Of a DNA stretch of 64,000 nt, positions 56,738-64,000 are shown one piece after another. The stretch's first letter is position 1. The number at the start of each line of letters is the position of its first letter. The notes beneath the pieces were generated by a model, which made no database searches, was not told the DNA's origin, and was given only the letters and a program-made list of their open reading frames with translations. Position numbers and translations under genes: made by a program. This stretch comes from a bacterium (GTDB lineage Bacteria; Patescibacteriota; Minisyncoccia; Phycocordibacterales; UBA5272). The stretch spans positions 4,652-68,651 of the forward strand of contig JAIXVU010000008.1 in NCBI GenBank assembly GCA_027482685.1, written 5' to 3'.

Positions 56738-57892
56738 GTGATGACGTCAATCTCGATGTATTTCTATCTGCTGTACTTCACAGGGTCACCGTTTCAACAA
56801 GCGAGTTACCACTGGGGAACATGGTTCTTTCTTGCTGGGCTGCTCTTTAGTAGATTCGGCGTGAATGATGTTGGGTCACATGGCTACCTTGCCTTTTTCG
56901 GTAAGGCGGTTCGTCATGCTGATGGCTCATATGTGAAGTGGGGAGATGGTATGTACCTTATCCCCACACTTTTCCCTCCATTTAATGTCATTGGCGTCCC
57001 TCTTGGTTGGACGATGAAGCACGCAAGTACAAGTGAGATCCCTATCCGTCCGGTAACACCACAAGAAGATAATTATGTCTTCTTGGATCATCGCTTGCCA
57101 CGTTACAACATCAATTCAACGGTTGGGTATTGGCAACAGACCTTCGCGAGGCTAACTGAGAATTTTATTAGTTGGGTCTTTAGCTACAACCCACAGAGCG
57201 AACTACGCTACCAGAAGATTGGTAGTATTCTCATGGTAATCGGTCTTGCGTTAGGGTGGTTCATGCAACAGCGACAGGGATACTTCCCCCAAACTGAACA
57301 AGTGATCACATATCAATCTGGTGAACAAAGTGCGGCAAAGGCCAAGATGATAACTAATAATAATCGCCAGCCGCAAGTAGTAGAGAGTGCGGCTACAATG
57401 CCTCGCCAACAACCTCCTGTCATCAATGGGTATACCGTCAACCTTGCTGTGGGGCAAGTGCCGAGATATCCATCACGTGCAGACTTCATGGAGGTGGTCA
57501 AGACCTCAGGAGTGCAGTACTACTACCGAGATGTAGACGGTCTCAAATACTTCTGGTATGTAGAAGGTGAAAGTGAAGCACCTGTTACCCTACCTCCATC
57601 ATCCTGCAAGATAGTGCCTGCAGGAAAAGAGGTAAGGCTATCCTCCAGTGTTCCACCACGGTACGTCATCAACATGGAAGAGTCCATTCTATACCGTGTG
57701 AAGAGCGCATACCTTCCCGAGAACGAACGCAGTCTGTTGTTCCCCAATAGTTCACAACTACGCAAGGGCACCTGGGGCATACTCCGTGCCAACTGGAACA
57801 CCTATGACAGGCAGAGTGACGGTATATTGGCGCGTACCCTTCCACAAGGCTCATTACCTTCGTCACAGTATGGTGGGCTTGTTTGTTTCTGA
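56738..57892 (+). CDS. Hypothetical protein, GC-elevated (~50%) island
   Basis: Long ORF with an N-terminal hydrophobic segment; no domain. Confidence 0.4.
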   Translation: MMTSISMYFYLLYFTGSPFQQASYHWGTWFFLAGLLFSRFGVNDVGSHGYLAFFGKAVRHADGSYVKWGDGMYLIPTLFPPFNVIGVPLGWTMKHASTSEIPIRPVTPQEDNYVFLDHRLPRYNINSTVGYWQQTFARLTENFISWVFSYNPQSELRYQKIGSILMVIGLALGWFMQQRQGYFPQTEQVITYQSGEQSAAKAKMITNNNRQPQVVESAATMPRQQPPVINGYTVNLAVGQVPRYPSRADFMEVVKTSGVQYYYRDVDGLKYFWYVEGESEAPVTLPPSSCKIVPAGKEVRLSSSVPPRYVINMEESILYRVKSAYLPENERSLLFPNSSQLRKGTWGILRANWNTYDRQSDGILARTLPQGSLPSSQYGGLVCF

Positions 57893-57928
57893 TCTCATAT
57901 GACTAGCGATGCAGGTCTAGTCTTTGCA

Positions 57929-57968
57929 CAGCCACGAGGTGAAAACTTCGTGGCTGTTTTCTTTTTTA
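57929..57968 (+). terminator. Rho-independent terminator
   Basis: CAGCCACGA-GGTGAAAACT-TCGTGGCTG followed by a T-run. Confidence 0.75.
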
Positions 57969-57995
57969 TATGATATCAGAGACCTATACGAAAGC

Positions 57996-58024
57996 TTGAC
58001 AAAAAAGTGTAAATAGTGTAAGAT
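57996..58024 (+). promoter_or_regulatory. Sigma-70-like promoter nearly identical to the 46182 promoter
   Basis: TTGACAAAAAAGTGTAAATAGTG-TAAGAT versus TTGACAAAAGTACAAAATAGTG-TATACT. Confidence 0.6.
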
Positions 58025-58089
58025 AGTAAACAGATGTTGTTTGAATGTTGTATAAGTTTAAGCAACTAATTCCACCGTTTGGAGGAAAG

Positions 58090-58479
58090 ATGAATGATGA
58101 AAAAAATCCTGAGGCGCCAAAAGTAGTTCTCGATGAACTACTTGGGAAGCTGGGGGTTGGAAAGGTGCCCAGCACCACCCCAACCCTCACGCTACCACCG
58201 GCCCCGACTGTGAGACATGCTACCGATTCGTCACGTGACATTGGTGGATATGCCTCACCCCCTCCGTCATCGGTCACCGATGGCAAGAAAGAAGAAAACA
58301 GCGCATTTGATCTGAAGGGGTTTCTCTTCAGGTTTGGAGTGAGCTCAGTTTTTTGGCTTGTTGTTGTGGGAGGAATGATACTCTACTTTGACAACAAAAG
58401 AGTCATTGCAGAATCATCCTCTCAAGTCGCAGCACCGAAGGGTGCATCGCGACAAATTCCTATCCCGCCCTCCAGGTGA
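58090..58479 (+). CDS. Hypothetical Pro-rich protein with C-terminal TM, GC-rich
   Basis: GGAGGAAAG RBS before ATG at 58090. Confidence 0.4.
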   Translation: MNDEKNPEAPKVVLDELLGKLGVGKVPSTTPTLTLPPAPTVRHATDSSRDIGGYASPPPSSVTDGKKEENSAFDLKGFLFRFGVSSVFWLVVVGGMILYFDNKRVIAESSSQVAAPKGASRQIPIPPSR

Positions 58480-58508
58480 AGGCACATCAACTACAGGAGA
58501 GAAAAAAC

Positions 58509-58880
58509 ATGGCTGGACTCCCCACAACCGTTGGCAGTAGGTCTGCCGCACCGGCATCGGCAACAAAGAGCAACAACGCCACCCAGGTGTTCGTTGTCGG
58601 CGTTCTCGTGGCGATGCTCGTCATTTTCCTCCACCTCTGGGGGAAGTATGACACTGATGCGCGCACCCAGCGCGCACAAGAATACAGTCAGACGGATGGA
58701 GCTCGTGAAGAACGAGCCTACCGTCTCGCGCTTGAAAGACTCGAAGCGGAAAAACTTCGTGCGCAAGCAGACTTGGAGAGGGCAAAACGGCTCGACGGCC
58801 GCACTGTTCTGATCCCGCCCAATGGAGCTGTCTGCCAAGACGGCTACCCATGGTCATCAACCACCGGATGTAACCGGTAG
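58509..58880 (+). CDS. Hypothetical single-TM protein with coiled-coil segment, GC-rich (~58%)
   Basis: AGGAGA RBS before ATG at 58509. Confidence 0.4.
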   Translation: MAGLPTTVGSRSAAPASATKSNNATQVFVVGVLVAMLVIFLHLWGKYDTDARTQRAQEYSQTDGAREERAYRLALERLEAEKLRAQADLERAKRLDGRTVLIPPNGAVCQDGYPWSSTTGCNR

Positions 58881-58891
58881 AAAGGATAAGC

Positions 58892-59170
58892 ATGTCTGAC
58901 CCAGCACCAAAGGCCGGAGGTCTAAAGCCCGGCGCAATCCTGCTCATCATCGGAGCGGTCGTTATCGGTGTCATCCTCATCGGGGTCGCCATCGAGGAAT
59001 TCCTCTTGTCCATTGCACGAGGAATCGGCAACGCATCCACCGAGCTCGCTCGTCGAGCGGGAGATATCAGTGTGGCAAAGCTGATCGCCCACGACATCGG
59101 AACCTGGATTGCAACAGCAATTGTTGTCCTGCTCTTCATTGGGTGGGCGGCGAAAAAGCTGAGGGAGTAG
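58892..59170 (+). CDS. Hypothetical two-TM small membrane protein, GC-rich
   Basis: 92 aa; two hydrophobic helices. Confidence 0.45.
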   Translation: MSDPAPKAGGLKPGAILLIIGAVVIGVILIGVAIEEFLLSIARGIGNASTELARRAGDISVAKLIAHDIGTWIATAIVVLLFIGWAAKKLRE

Positions 59171-59334
59171 CATCCCCTCCGTGATGACAACACGTAAAAA
59201 TCACCGAAGGCTACCCGCTTTCGTGTACATAGAATGTGTTCTCGTTTTACCGCGAGACCACAACCTCATGTGCGCGGAAAGAACGGGTAGCCTTCTTTTG
59301 TTTTGTATTGAAGTCGTATTGTTAGCCATCTCCA

Positions 59335-59420
59335 ACCCCGCCTTTTCAAAGCCTTGTGTAGTGCGACGGCGCAGAAGAGAGATAATTTCTAGCAAGAAAT
59401 TTACGTGCCTTGAAATGGTG
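59335..59420 (+). repeat. Structured repeat family B, copy 1 (upstream of dprA)
   Basis: CCTTTTCAAAGCC...TGCGACGGCGCA...AATTTCTAGCAAGAAATT...GCCTTGAAATGG: an outer stem plus two inner hairpins. Confidence 0.65.
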
Positions 59421-59538
59421 GGTTACAAAAAAATATGATAAGTTTTTATACAAGATATCTTACGTATCGAACCCCTCATTTTCGAAAAATGAACCCATTT
59501 TTACACCCCATTTCATTTCCTATATACTTAACTTTACA

Positions 59539-60438
59539 ATGACCCCTTCAGAAATAATCTGTATAGAACAAAAAGACTTCCATTCCCATCCTCTGCTTGC
59601 CCGATTACTTCAGCTTCATGATATACCGAAGCAACTATACATTCGTGGCACCCTACCTAATGTAACAATAGACGAGTACGGTCGTGCAACACCTCGCGTC
59701 CTCACTGTTGTAGGCTCACGCAAGCATACTCGTTATGGTAAACTCGCACTTGAAAAAATCATCTCGTCCCTTAACAAGGAAGAGGTCATCATACTTTCTG
59801 GACTAGCTCTTGGTATTGATAGCCTCGCGCATCAGTCAGCTCTTAGTAATACTCTACAAACCATCGCAGTCCCAGGGAGCGGTATCGCAACAACTGCTAT
59901 CTACCCTGCCTCACACAAGCACCTTGCCGAGAACATACTAGACCAGGGTGGTGTTCTTCTCTCTGAGTTTCCACCAGACACAAAAGCTGCTCCATGGACA
60001 TTCCCTGCACGCAACCGAGTGATGGCAGCATTATCTGACGCTGTACTTGTAGCAGAAGCAGAAGAAAAATCTGGCACGTTAATCACTGCACGACAAGCAC
60101 TTGAACTTGGTCGTGATATAGGAGCCATCCCTGGAGAGATACTTTCACCAACATCACTTGGTACCAATCTCCTTATCCGTGATGGAGCATATATGATAGC
60201 TACTACAGATGATATATATTCTCTTCTCCATCTTACGAAAAAAGAAAAAGGTGATGAAGATATAGAACTAACAGCTGATGAAAAAAGTATCGTCATACAT
60301 CTCACAGAACCACTAGAAAAAGACGCTCTTCTTATTCGCTCTAAGCTTGCACCGGATGTGTTTATGATGACACTTTCTACACTTGAACTTAAAGGAATTA
60401 TAGAAGAGACATTTGGCGAAGTACGAAAGATAGTGTAG
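59539..60438 (+). CDS. dprA: DNA processing protein DprA (Smf)
   Basis: Rossmann-like core VVGSRKHTRYG...SGLALGIDSLAHQ; start moved to the internal Met. Confidence 0.8.
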   Translation: MTPSEIICIEQKDFHSHPLLARLLQLHDIPKQLYIRGTLPNVTIDEYGRATPRVLTVVGSRKHTRYGKLALEKIISSLNKEEVIILSGLALGIDSLAHQSALSNTLQTIAVPGSGIATTAIYPASHKHLAENILDQGGVLLSEFPPDTKAAPWTFPARNRVMAALSDAVLVAEAEEKSGTLITARQALELGRDIGAIPGEILSPTSLGTNLLIRDGAYMIATTDDIYSLLHLTKKEKGDEDIELTADEKSIVIHLTEPLEKDALLIRSKLAPDVFMMTLSTLELKGIIEETFGEVRKIV

Positions 60439-60585
60439 TATTCTAGGGCTTAGACTTTAGGGACTAGGGTCTAGCTACTACAAAAATACAGTATATGTTA
60501 AAAAAATAATGTATACTTATGTATACTTCGCTAAGTCAACAAATCTCTAAACTGCCTAACCCCTAGTCCCTAACACCTAGTTTTT

Positions 60586-62802
60586 ATGAAACTCCTCATC
60601 GTAGAAAGCCCCTCAAAGGCGAAAACTATTGCAAAGTACCTAGATGGTGCGTACGAAGTACGTGCCTCTGTTGGACATGTACGAGATCTTCCAAAGAGTA
60701 ACAAGAAAGCAGTGGATATAGAAGCAGGATTCGTCCCTCACTACGAAGTGAGTGTAGGCAAAGAAAAGGTTATATCAGACATTAAGTCTCTTGCAAAAAA
60801 ATCAAACGAAGTCATCCTCGCAACCGACCCCGACCGTGAAGGAGAAGCAATAGCATGGCATATCCGTGAAGCGTGTAACTTACACAATGCTAAGCGTGTA
60901 ACATTCAATGAGATTACCGAGAAAGCAGTAAAGGAAGCCCTCAAGCACCCACGCGATATCGACATGAACCTAAAAGAAGCTCAAGAAGCTCGTCGAGTGC
61001 TTGACCGTCTCGTGGGATATGACTTATCAGGTATCATCTGGCAAAAGGTACGTTATGGGCTCTCAGCAGGCCGTGTGCAATCCCCTGCGCTACGTATCAT
61101 CATGGAACGTGAACGTGAGATACGAGCATTCATCCCAGAAACATATTACGTTATCGCAGGAGAGTTCGGAACCGTTGGCAGGATGAAAGAAAGTAAAAGT
61201 TACACACTGTTACTTGAATGTGATATACAACCAAAAGAAAAGACAGAGGCTGAGAGAATTGTAAAAGCTGGTCGTGCGAACAGTTGGGAAGTTGTAGCTG
61301 TTGAAAGTACAGAAGTTAGTCGTTCACCAAAAGCTCCTTTTACAACGTCTACACTACAGCAGGCGGCATCATCACGGCTCGGATACGCTCCATCACGTAC
61401 GATGGGTATCGCACAAAAATTATACGAGAAAGGATTGATTACGTACATGCGTACTGATAGTACTACTATTTCAAAAGATGCTCTTGGTGAGATTGGTAAG
61501 GTGATAGAAAAAAACTTCGGTCATGACGTATTGCAAATTCGTCAGTACAAGACAAAGTCCAAGAATGCCCAAGAAGCCCATGAAGCAATCCGTCCAACAC
61601 ATGCAATGACAAGAAGTGGCGGGAGTACAGATGACGAGAAGCGACTCTACTCTCTCATCTGGGAGAGAACAGTGTCGAGTCAGATGAAAGATGCGAAACT
61701 CAAACGTAGCAAGGTAAGTGCTAACATAACCAATAAAAGCATACCGAATTTTTCTGTGACTGGTTCTGTTGTTGTATATCCTGGATGGTTGTTAGTTGAT
61801 CAGGATGCTCGCGGAGATGATGTCATCTTACCGGAACTCAAAGTCGGGGATGAACTCAATCTCAAAACTCTTCAATCAATAGAAAAGCAGACTGAACCTC
61901 CACATCGCTACACCGAGGCAGGACTAGTAAAGGAACTTGAGAAGCGTGGTATTGGCCGTCCTTCGACCTATGCATCCATCATTTCGACAATCGAAGCACG
62001 CGGCTACGTTGATAAGATAAACAAGTCCCTTCATCCGACGGATACCGGTGAAGTTGTTATCTCATTTCTAGAGGACCATTTTGCGTCATACATTAGCGAC
62101 ACCTTCACTGCGGATATGGAAGACAAGCTAGATACAATTGCAGAAGGTAAAGCAACATACCTAAAAATATTAAAAGATTTTTACGGACCATTTATTAAAG
62201 ATGTAAAATCAAAAGCAAAACTAGAAAAAGCGACTAACATGGGTGACGCACCAGAAGACATCCTCTGTCCACTGTGTAACTCTCCAATGGTTGTTAAGCT
62301 TTCAAAAAATGGTAAGTTCTACTCATGTTCAAAATACCCAGATTGTATGGGCGCGCGAAAGTTAGACGGTAGCGTAATGGAAGGACCGAAGAAGTTAGAC
62401 AAGAAATGTCCAAAGTGTGAAAAAGGAGACCTCATGGAACGAGATGGCCGTTATGGTAAGTTCATCGCATGCTCTAACTATCCGAAATGTAAATATATAG
62501 AACAAGATGAGGAGATGCGCAAAGCGAACTCAACAGGAGTAAGTTGTAACAAGTGTAAAGATGGATACATGGAAGAACGAAAAGGACGTTTTGGGGTATT
62601 CTATTCTTGTTCTAACTATCCTGACTGTAAACATATCGTAAAAACAAGACCAACGGGTAATCGTTGTACATGGAAAAAGGTTGACGGCACTCTTTGTGGA
62701 GAACTCATGATGGAAGGGACAAAGACTATCCCTGAGCGATGCTCTGATAAGTTGTGTCCGAATCATAATCCTCACAAATTAGATAAAGTTGAGAAGAAGT
62801 AA
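60586..62802 (+). CDS. topA: DNA topoisomerase I
   Basis: TOPRIM N-terminus (LLIVESPSKAKTI) and four C-terminal CxxC zinc ribbons. Confidence 0.95.
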   Translation: MKLLIVESPSKAKTIAKYLDGAYEVRASVGHVRDLPKSNKKAVDIEAGFVPHYEVSVGKEKVISDIKSLAKKSNEVILATDPDREGEAIAWHIREACNLHNAKRVTFNEITEKAVKEALKHPRDIDMNLKEAQEARRVLDRLVGYDLSGIIWQKVRYGLSAGRVQSPALRIIMEREREIRAFIPETYYVIAGEFGTVGRMKESKSYTLLLECDIQPKEKTEAERIVKAGRANSWEVVAVESTEVSRSPKAPFTTSTLQQAASSRLGYAPSRTMGIAQKLYEKGLITYMRTDSTTISKDALGEIGKVIEKNFGHDVLQIRQYKTKSKNAQEAHEAIRPTHAMTRSGGSTDDEKRLYSLIWERTVSSQMKDAKLKRSKVSANITNKSIPNFSVTGSVVVYPGWLLVDQDARGDDVILPELKVGDELNLKTLQSIEKQTEPPHRYTEAGLVKELEKRGIGRPSTYASIISTIEARGYVDKINKSLHPTDTGEVVISFLEDHFASYISDTFTADMEDKLDTIAEGKATYLKILKDFYGPFIKDVKSKAKLEKATNMGDAPEDILCPLCNSPMVVKLSKNGKFYSCSKYPDCMGARKLDGSVMEGPKKLDKKCPKCEKGDLMERDGRYGKFIACSNYPKCKYIEQDEEMRKANSTGVSCNKCKDGYMEERKGRFGVFYSCSNYPDCKHIVKTRPTGNRCTWKKVDGTLCGELMMEGTKTIPERCSDKLCPNHNPHKLDKVEKK

Positions 62803-62889
62803 AAACTTCAATTATTTTAGAAAAAATCTTTTCTTAGATACGGCAAGTATTTCGTGAAATAATTTTATTAAAGTTTTCTTTTTAACCCT

Positions 62890-62975
62890 ACACTTTCAAA
62901 GCACGACAATTTCTTGCTAGAAATTGTCTCTGTTCCGCGCCGTCGCGCTTCCACGCGGCTTTGAAAGGCTGGGGT
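62890..62975 (-). repeat. Structured repeat family B, copy 2 (downstream of topA, inverted relative to copy 1)
   Basis: ~80% identical to copy 1, with compensatory stem changes. Confidence 0.65.
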
Positions 62976-63167
62976 TAGGTGTAGCTGAAATACAAATGCT
63001 GTACTTTTACTTGTAACTAACTTTGCTACTAAGGAGTGTTGTGTGAACACTCATATACTTAACTTATTAATTCTCGGTAAAAGCGCTACACAACATCCTC
63101 TGTAGCGCTCTTCATTTCATTAAATAAATACTAGAAACTCTACCCTACTATATGGTATTGTTAATAG

Positions 63168-64000
63168 ATGGACACTGTAACTATTCACAACACCGACCCG
63201 AACCGTATATTTGCGCTACTTCCTGACATTGGAGACGCTGATAAGCATTTGATAACTCGTGCATGCAAATTTGCAGAAAAGGCCCATGAAGGTCAACTTC
63301 GCAAATCTGGTGAACCATATTATAACCATGTGTTTGAGACAGGGGTTAACTTAGCAATGCTTAAGATGGACGCTGATACGATTGCAGCCGGTATCATGCA
63401 TGATGTACTAGAAGATACTAATGTAACAGATGTTGAAATGTCTAAAGAGTTCGGTGAGCATATTACTAAACTTGTAGAAGGTGTGACGAAACTTGGTAAG
63501 TTACGCTATACCGGTGCTGAGCGTCACGTAGAGTCACTGCGTAAGTTCTTCGTTGCAATGGCTGATGATATACGTGTTGTTGTTATAAAACTCTGCGATA
63601 GATTACACAACATACAGACACTTCAGTATGTATCCCCTGAGAAGCAGAAACGTATCGCACTTGAAACGCTTGAGATACACGCTCGCCTCGCTGACCGCTT
63701 AGGTATGGGACGACTCAAGACCCAACTAGAAGACGCGGCCTTCCCCTATGTCTATCCAGATGATTACAAAAAGACAGTGGAACTTTTTGAAAGCATCAAG
63801 CCAATATCAGATGAACAATTAGAAAAAATAGTTACTGCGCTTGGTGAAGAACTCACTATTTTTGATGTTGAGATAGAACGTATCGACTACCGTGTAAAGC
63901 ATTTGTATTCTCTTTGGCAGAAGCTCAAACGTTATAAGATGGATATTAGCAAGGTTCACGATGTTGTTGCACTTCGTATCATCGTGCCTACAGTTGGTGA
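63168..64000 (+). CDS. RelA/SpoT-family (p)ppGpp synthetase/hydrolase, 5' partial (HD domain); runs off the window
   Basis: MDTVTIHNTDP...IAAGIMHDVLEDT carries the HD motif; no stop before the window end. Confidence 0.8.
   Translation, partial: MDTVTIHNTDPNRIFALLPDIGDADKHLITRACKFAEKAHEGQLRKSGEPYYNHVFETGVNLAMLKMDADTIAAGIMHDVLEDTNVTDVEMSKEFGEHITKLVEGVTKLGKLRYTGAERHVESLRKFFVAMADDIRVVVIKLCDRLHNIQTLQYVSPEKQKRIALETLEIHARLADRLGMGRLKTQLEDAAFPYVYPDDYKKTVELFESIKPISDEQLEKIVTALGEELTIFDVEIERIDYRVKHLYSLWQKLKRYKMDISKVHDVVALRIIVPTVG

Follow-up and report, generated by a model that had tools for sequence, protein, structure and literature searches.

The described systems closest to the element reported here are repetitive extragenic palindromic (REP) sequences, bacterial interspersed mosaic elements (BIMEs) and REPINs, which are mobilised by RAYT, an IS200/IS605-like Y1 transposase, and which are intergenic, non-coding hairpins located mostly past gene 3′ ends in either orientation, frequently paired with an adjoining inverted copy, and believed to undergo recognition in the form of one folded strand. 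Bacterial miniature inverted-repeat transposable elements (MITEs; Correia/NEMIS, ERIC, RUP, BOX and the Rickettsia palindromic elements) are non-coding, foldable, polymorphic for presence and absence, and locally clustered, while integron attC sites conserve stem structure over sequence, act through one folded strand and measure 60–140 nucleotides (nt). Here, we describe a hairpin element that shares the above-mentioned properties of REPs, other than the RAYT transposase, and of MITEs, including the size range of the latter, and resembles attC sites in the traits given, and which occurs as two copies, B1 and B2, on opposite strands around the genes dprA and topA in a 64,000-nt stretch of a patescibacterial genome (contig JAIXVU010000008.1; hereafter the window). 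B1 and B2 are diverged copies of an interspersed hairpin family found across the Patescibacteria (candidate phyla radiation, CPR). On balance, we favour the explanation that this patescibacterial family is a structured mobile repeat, strand-specific and non-autonomous, and that B1 and B2 landed in, or were duplicated into, two permissive spacers.

B1 lies on the + strand at 59334..59425 and B2 on the − strand at 62883..62977, extents slightly wider than the coordinates of an earlier sequence-only reading, which had correctly located the two copies and their opposite orientation. Its figure of about 80% identity agrees with a global alignment of 59335–59420 and the reverse complement of 62890–62975 (72/88 = 82%), the likeness including the outer stem, and folding of each copy gave the outer stem around two hairpins that it had described. 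In B1, the 5′ arm of the outer stem P1 (ACCCCGCCTTTTCAAAGC, 59335..59352) and its 3′ arm (GCCTTGAAATGGTGGGTT, 59407..59424) flank a conserved core matched by the family covariance model (59352..59410; purine internal loop, P2, junction, P3 and GUG), in which hairpin P2 (GUGC-GACG-GCGC in the family register, with one G.U; 59361..59372) precedes the P3 apex (AATTTCT-AGCA-AGAAATT, its AGCA loop being the family-wide invariant; 59384..59401). In B2, read in the sense of the element, the P1 arms are TAACCCCAGCCTTTCAAAGC (5′, 62958..62977) and GCTTTGAAAGTGTAGGGTTA (3′, 62883..62902), the core matched by the model is at 62900..62957, P2 (GCGC-GACG-GCGC) is at 62937..62948, and the P3 apex (62908..62925) is an 18-mer identical to that of B1. 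This 18-mer (AATTTCTAGCAAGAAATT) and a 20-mer of the first hairpin are confined to B1 and B2 within the 64 kb, against a chance expectation of 0.02–0.23 in shuffled sequence. With filters off, the covariance model identified no copy in the window other than B2, with a score of 59.4 bits (E 4e-11), and B1, with 52.3 bits (E 2e-9).

The two copies differ in their state of preservation. B2 is well paired, with folding z-scores of −6.1 and −5.0 for the + and − strands, respectively, while the values for B1 are only −2.3 and −2.8. B1 also fails to pair at positions that are paired in B2, with two mismatches in the 10-bp outer stem CTTTCAAAGC/GCTTTGAAAG and another two where the stem of the second hairpin starts. 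B1 is a decayed copy, the worse preserved of the two. The proposed compensatory nature of the B1/B2 differences did not hold up: the T-A to C-G change needs a helix register foreign to the family, the P2 difference in the register backed by 112 family members is a one-sided change from C-G to U.G, and the A/G difference paired in that reading is a substitution within the conserved internal loop. Since the family register yields only these changes, there is no real covariation between the two copies; the covariation is genuine at the level of the family.

The family was sampled by scanning one genome per species, across 185,579 species, with the 18-nt apical hairpin. At least 119 stretches were recovered, where a few tens were estimated to be expected by chance; nearly all were in metagenome-assembled genomes (MAGs) of Patescibacteria, several of which carried two to five copies. 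The names among the listed matches, as given by the depositors of the MAGs, were Paceibacterota, Nomurabacteria, Kaiserbacteria, Adlerbacteria, Zambryskibacteria, Minisyncoccia and ‘Saccharibacteria’, while the few listed matches in other phyla were mostly devoid of the remaining motif. Within the 8-kb pieces around each exact match, a covariance model (R1) built from 47 sequences identified 112 copies in 83 loci at E < 1e-5, the E-values being rough owing to a shortened calibration. Many of these copies are without the exact 18-mer and thus free of the ascertainment imposed by it. The density was often two to five copies per 8 kb, with some abutting inverted pairs. More than 100 further copies, with strong covariation, were thus recovered from other Patescibacteria genomes, and of the four possibilities which the sequence-only reading had raised, a dispersed non-coding RNA or REP family is the only one supported.

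The architecture of the element comprises, from 5′ to 3′, the self-complementary outer stem P1, a 3x2 purine internal loop (G-N-A / G-A), P2 (a 4–5-bp stem with a GNCG loop), a GA-rich junction, P3 (a 10–15-bp hairpin with a conserved apex, an AGCA loop and a frequent bulged A), GUG or GUA, and the 3′ arm of P1. The result is a conserved three-way junction closed by a variable outer stem, the whole element measuring 100–160 bp. In the alignment of 112 copies, 96.3% of cells are paired, compared to 77.6% in column shuffles and 35–54% in slid controls, and double changes were observed in 14 of the 16 pairs (310 doubly changed cells vs 83 expected). The AGCA loop is present in 105/112 copies, and GACG or GUCG in 80/112. 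RNAalifold analysis of 13 full-length copies of one subtype predicted 40 pairs, 28 of them with compensatory changes, the outer stem being included and most variable; the outer arms have a median length of approximately 27 nt, reach approximately 45 nt, and are dissimilar among most copies. The element has the properties of a curated family in Rfam 15 (conserved loops and covarying helices), but no family was matched by the whole window at gathering thresholds, by 59.1–63.2 kb (which includes B1 and B2) at E ≤ 10 or by eight canonical loci at E ≤ 1, these searches returning only tRNAs, one rRNA and noise. Likewise, a literature search on the hairpin sequence, CPR repeats and structured RNAs found no description of the element.

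Several loci carry variant architectures (L008, L013, L039, L043 and L098; L021, L022, L041 and L072) which have only the AGCA hairpin in common: a second hairpin of another kind, often with a CUGCAG-type apex or GC-rich, lies after it, and both are enclosed by a very long outer stem (up to ~30 bp). Several element types thus seem to reuse the AGCA hairpin as a module. Other leads were rejected. A metagenome scan with TTTCAAAGCN{8,13}GCGACGGCGC gave at least 120 matches, attributable to chance in GC-rich contigs and with no family member among the matches listed; a phage association was reduced to four weak matches in 2.9 million viral contigs; and a flanking GCGAGCGAG direct repeat was present in few copies and is not general. 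No tandem array was found in L109, and TIGR-Tas arrays, in which tandem alternating 8–12-nt repeats and 9-nt spacers lie beside a Nop-domain Tas gene (PMC12045711), are of different architecture, the element having neither an array nor a recurrent neighbouring gene.

Inside the P1 helices, G.T pairs outnumber A.C pairs by 52 to 18 (p = 6e-5), and the excess is present in every gene-context class, including elements that are antisense to both neighbours (14 vs 4). As the bias holds in every context class, the fold is concluded to be selected on one strand of the element itself, that which reads AAUUUCUAGCAAGAAAUU. Gene context, derived from a crude open reading frame (ORF) caller and not from a gene finder, indicated that the elements are intergenic, 27 being in convergent spacers, 20 in tandem spacers in sense and 22 in antisense, and only eight in divergent spacers. 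Since convergent and tandem spacers dominate and divergent ones are rare, the elements are located behind gene 3′ ends, in either orientation. The element is without a gene of its own, and the 8-kb pieces contained no recurrent neighbouring protein (transposase, reverse transcriptase or integrase), the largest neighbour clusters corresponding to five loci of housekeeping genes. The possibilities that the element is an intrinsic terminator or carries its own sigma-70 promoter were both rejected, as a T-run follows the stem in 5/46 copies only and a promoter lies upstream in 2/29 copies, equal to shuffles.

Gain and loss of the element was most clearly apparent between L026 and L120 (~85% amino-acid identity). 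One orthologous spacer contains two elements in L026 and one in L120, the filled and empty sites differing by a precise 130-nt indel which represents one whole hairpin, arms included; reciprocally, an L120 copy at another spacer is missing from L026. Because these two lineage-specific copies have their outer arms in common, and because the clean empty site is without either arm, the whole hairpin is concluded to be the unit that moved. The empty site also argues against insertion of a bare core into an existing hairpin, or inverted duplication of a flank, which survives as a possibility for the tRNA-linked subtype (described below) only. Furthermore, orthologous spacers of L042, L058 and L095 have one, zero and two copies in one case and two, two and zero in another, and near-identical copies are present inside single MAGs (L083; L015/L045). 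The outer stem common to B1 and B2, and a same-strain Logan contig that ends within B2, point in the same direction. At the dprA-topA locus itself, four close relatives (TopA 86–91% identical; 91%, 89%, 86%) displayed no trace of the repeat at the orthologous loci L002–L006, whether by blastn-short or by covariance model, and the same result rules out a conserved cis-element of dprA/topA. Abutting pairs in opposite orientation, head-to-head and tail-to-tail, form larger palindromes in L026 (4737–4919), L048 (1966–2174), L049 (5508–5685), L095 (732–917), L058 (6827–7015) and L042 (4620–4822); in the L026 pair, the second member was inserted recently beside the older one.

One subtype is linked to tRNA genes. 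Approximately 21 copies of this subtype are located 19–112 nt downstream of a tRNA gene, all on the strand of the tRNA. In seven of them, the 3′ end of the tRNA (12–19 nt, T-loop to discriminator) is directly repeated after the GTGAC of the core (maximum of 8–10 nt in shuffled controls), and the T-loop/T-stem portion of the repeat is complementary to the P1 5′ arm; others have repeats of 6–7 nt. The span between the tRNA repeats is only ~120–190 nt and non-coding, consisting of the folded element and sometimes a terminator, with no integrase or cargo. Canonical terminators separate tRNA and element in L062, L028 and L075, and co-transcription is thus not an obvious reason for their shared orientation. 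An interrupted or duplicated tRNA gene was rejected, there being no tRNA homology upstream of the T-arm-like arm, and so was a general X-X′-core-X arrangement of flank repeats, which was not above control level (8 vs 5). A repeat extending from T-loop to 3′ end has the look of the att sites of T-loop-type integrases, and the duplication of the tRNA 3′ end, which is not fully explained, is the best mechanistic lead available. B1 and B2 do not adjoin tRNA genes. In L100, ARAGORN called a stop-codon-reading tRNA (anticodon UUA) at 863–936, directly upstream of two element copies.

In the explanation that we consider the more probable, the element behaves as a mobile repeat: entire hairpins come and go between genes, mainly a short way past gene 3′ ends and beside tRNA genes, and they cluster locally. 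We infer that the fold would be required in the single-stranded form of one particular strand, as a single-stranded DNA or RNA intermediate, and that the conserved apex would be recognised by an enzyme supplied in trans; recognition of a folded single strand in this way would account for an apex of fixed sequence on stems that need only pair. The polymorphism for whole units that is characteristic of MITEs is evident here at the 130-nt L026/L120 site, in the reciprocal case and at the empty loci of the relatives of the window. However, MITEs carry terminal inverted repeats in common with a parent insertion sequence, whereas the outer arms of this element are unique in most copies and no transposase was found nearby. 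MITEs also show target-site duplications; at the one clean site the AT-rich, diverged flanks do not allow a duplication to be read, a general flank repeat was not seen, and tRNA-linked copies do have repeats of 12–19 nt. REPs, in turn, are simple palindromes of 20–40 nt with a conserved stem sequence and 5′ tetranucleotide, present in hundreds of copies and often flanking a RAYT (Y1 HUH) gene; the present element measures 100–160 nt, has a three-way-junction apex that is conserved while the stem varies, and occurs at modest copy density, and no RAYT gene was seen in the 8-kb pieces around its copies.

A number of observations weigh against mobility. Neither a transposase nor a recombinase was identified, a clear target-site duplication is not readable at the single clean filled/empty site, where the flanks are AT-rich and diverged, and the P1 arms, which would represent the terminal inverted repeats, are not conserved between most copies, unlike those of ordinary MITEs. 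Additionally, a peptidase-element-prfA arrangement is kept in five or six divergent MAGs, and tRNA-Arg-element-tRNA-Gly and tRNA-Leu(gag)-element are also kept across divergent MAGs, which suggests long-term retention, or function; conserved loops together with a purine internal loop are, moreover, typical of protein-binding RNAs. Finally, the copies are known only from 8-kb pieces around exact 18-mer matches, and their gene context rests on the crude ORF caller mentioned above.

Several of these points would fit a primarily functional structured RNA, whether a 3′ trailer or 3′ untranslated region (UTR) module or a family of small RNA genes, to which a conserved protein would bind at the AGCA hairpin and purine internal loop, and with a role in 3′-end processing, termination or transcript stabilisation. 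We regard this as a serious rival to the mobile repeat, or as an added layer to it, although on its own it is the less likely of the two. Covariation in all helices, invariant loop nucleotides, the excess of G.U on one strand, the strict co-orientation with upstream tRNA genes, the enrichment at gene 3′ ends with depletion from divergent promoter spacers, and syntenic sites kept across divergent MAGs with compensatory changes in situ would all be consistent with it. Locally, a canonical + strand terminator was not found between topA and relA, so that, on this view, topA would have no strong 3′ structure behind it other than B2, which folds at −43 kcal/mol. Such a role is, however, difficult to reconcile with elements that are antisense to flanking transcription as often as sense in protein-gene contexts (22 vs 20), with the absence of a conserved upstream promoter and of a U-tract after the stem, with terminators between tRNA and element in several cases, with close relatives that are without the element at the same loci, and with the failure to match an Rfam family. 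More tentatively, the element may represent an undescribed, Patescibacteria-specific class of structured element, either a mobile element recognised as a single strand or an RNA, protein-binding or catalytic, dispersed in the manner of a repeat, in which the three-way-junction apex (AGCA hairpin, GNCG hairpin and purine loop) would serve as the recognition module. The outer stem evolves freely and, beside tRNA genes, is built from a copy of the T-arm and 3′ end of the tRNA, a hint that T-loop-like hairpins may be insertion targets or recombination partners.

An improbable alternative is a miniature element with site-specific integration, akin to an integron attC site or a tRNA att site, for which a recombinase would join the folded hairpin to a target such as the tRNA T-loop and so duplicate the tRNA 3′ end. 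The 12–19-nt direct repeats flanking tRNA-linked copies do correspond to the identity block of T-loop-type integration by tRNA-targeting integrases, the pairing of the P1 5′ arm with the T-loop/T-stem of the second copy would be in keeping with such a reaction, strand-specific tolerance of G.T is expected of a folded single strand, and variable stems of conserved structure resemble attC sites. As in tRNA-targeting integrative elements with a T-loop sublocation, a direct repeat of the tRNA 3′ part bounds the seven tRNA-linked copies, running from T-loop to 3′ end and always on the downstream side, which does not concern B1 or B2. Such integrative elements, however, enclose an integrase and cargo between the repeats, where the element has only 120–190 nt of non-coding DNA. 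There is no integrase nearby, copies between protein genes are without a flanking direct repeat above control (8 vs 5), and no tRNA homology exists upstream of P1. In attC sites the base of the hairpin is conserved (R″/R′ boxes, RYYYAAC...GTTRRRY; R/L boxes) and the apex varies, which is the reverse of what is observed here; the ends of B2 resemble AAC...GTTAGGT by eye, but the family consensus is without a conserved base. Furthermore, attC sites form co-oriented cassette arrays beside intI, while the present element is found between housekeeping genes as single copies or inverted pairs, with no cassette array.

That B1 and B2 are recombination sites which invert or mobilise dprA-topA, or competence-linked DNA-uptake signals, as the sequence-only reading had also suggested, is extremely improbable, for nothing other than their inverted placement around a competence and topology gene pair speaks for it, while neither the order nor the orientation of the genes differs in the four repeat-free relatives (small gene - dprA - topA - variable genes - relA), the family elsewhere adjoins unrelated housekeeping genes, there are two copies in the 64 kb, and B1 is degraded. 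An invertible segment switched by an invertase or recombinase needs an alternative orientation and a nearby recombinase; only the one orientation was seen among the relatives, and no recombinase was found among the ORFs at ~56.7–63 kb, where Pfam gave only DprA and topoisomerase domains. DNA uptake sequences (DUS) and uptake signal sequences (USS) are short words present in hundreds to thousands of copies per genome, whereas the conserved part of this element is a folded 60-nt core and no short abundant word. The inverted arrangement of B1 and B2 around dprA-topA is incidental, and inverted copies around genes are, with due caution, not to be read as switches.

Patescibacteria genomes are tiny and streamlined, and we found no paper on repeats or structured RNAs of this kind in these bacteria; the element extends across many of their lineages with covariation support on a par with curated RNA families, yet is not in Rfam, where the alignment and covariance model could seed a new family entry. 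If the element is mobile, it would give access to the genome dynamics of uncultivated bacteria and to an enzyme of structure-specific recombination or transposition in them, the tRNA 3′-end duplications being a concrete mechanistic lead; if it acts as RNA, it would be a candidate for a new protein-binding or processing motif. The element also explains assembly contig breaks: a 7-kb Logan contig of the same strain (L001) ends in the middle of B2, at window position 62922, as is expected if other near-identical copies exist elsewhere in the genome.

TopA homologues place the organism in the Patescibacteria/CPR, among Paceibacterota and Nomurabacteria MAGs. All genes around B1 and B2 are on the + strand, in the order hypothetical genes, a non-coding region with a terminator, B1, dprA (59539..60438), topA (60586..62802), B2 and a relA/spoT-like ORF (63168..64000) that runs off the window and was assigned by eye and by synteny with the RelA_SpoT genes of the relatives; dprA and topA are context and not part of the element. 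B1 is located ~30 nt past the conserved terminator and upstream of dprA, and B2 in the topA-relA spacer, 81 nt past the topA stop. The hypothetical genes are four + strand ORFs (56738–59170) of raised G+C (45–49%) and without a Pfam match, and comparable small hypothetical genes precede dprA in the relatives. Between a 92-amino-acid hypothetical gene and B1, a conserved non-coding region (59183–59305) contains two conserved hairpins and ends in a stem (59209–59217 / 59284–59296) followed by TTCTTTTGTTTT; it is alignable in L002, L004 and L005 with some compensatory changes, is without an Rfam match, and could be a small RNA or 3′-UTR element with its terminator.

The topA-relA spacer has different genes in each relative. 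At 62990–63090 of the window, TAAGGAGTGTTGTGTGAACACTC aligns to the ribosome-binding site and start of a gene of 423 amino acids located between topA and relA in L002; as only this stub is left here, gene loss from the spacer seems to have occurred. The dprA neighbourhood is likewise variable, since the 86% relative carries, ~6 kb upstream of dprA, a large serine recombinase with a helix-turn-helix (HTH) gene (L005/L006, 2349–3947) that is absent from the equivalent region of the window. Elsewhere in the window, where G+C is otherwise ~40%, the content rises to 52% at 44–48 kb, with long ORFs overlapping on both strands, and then falls to 31–33% at 48–52 kb, a shift in composition that may reflect foreign DNA or an unusual gene.

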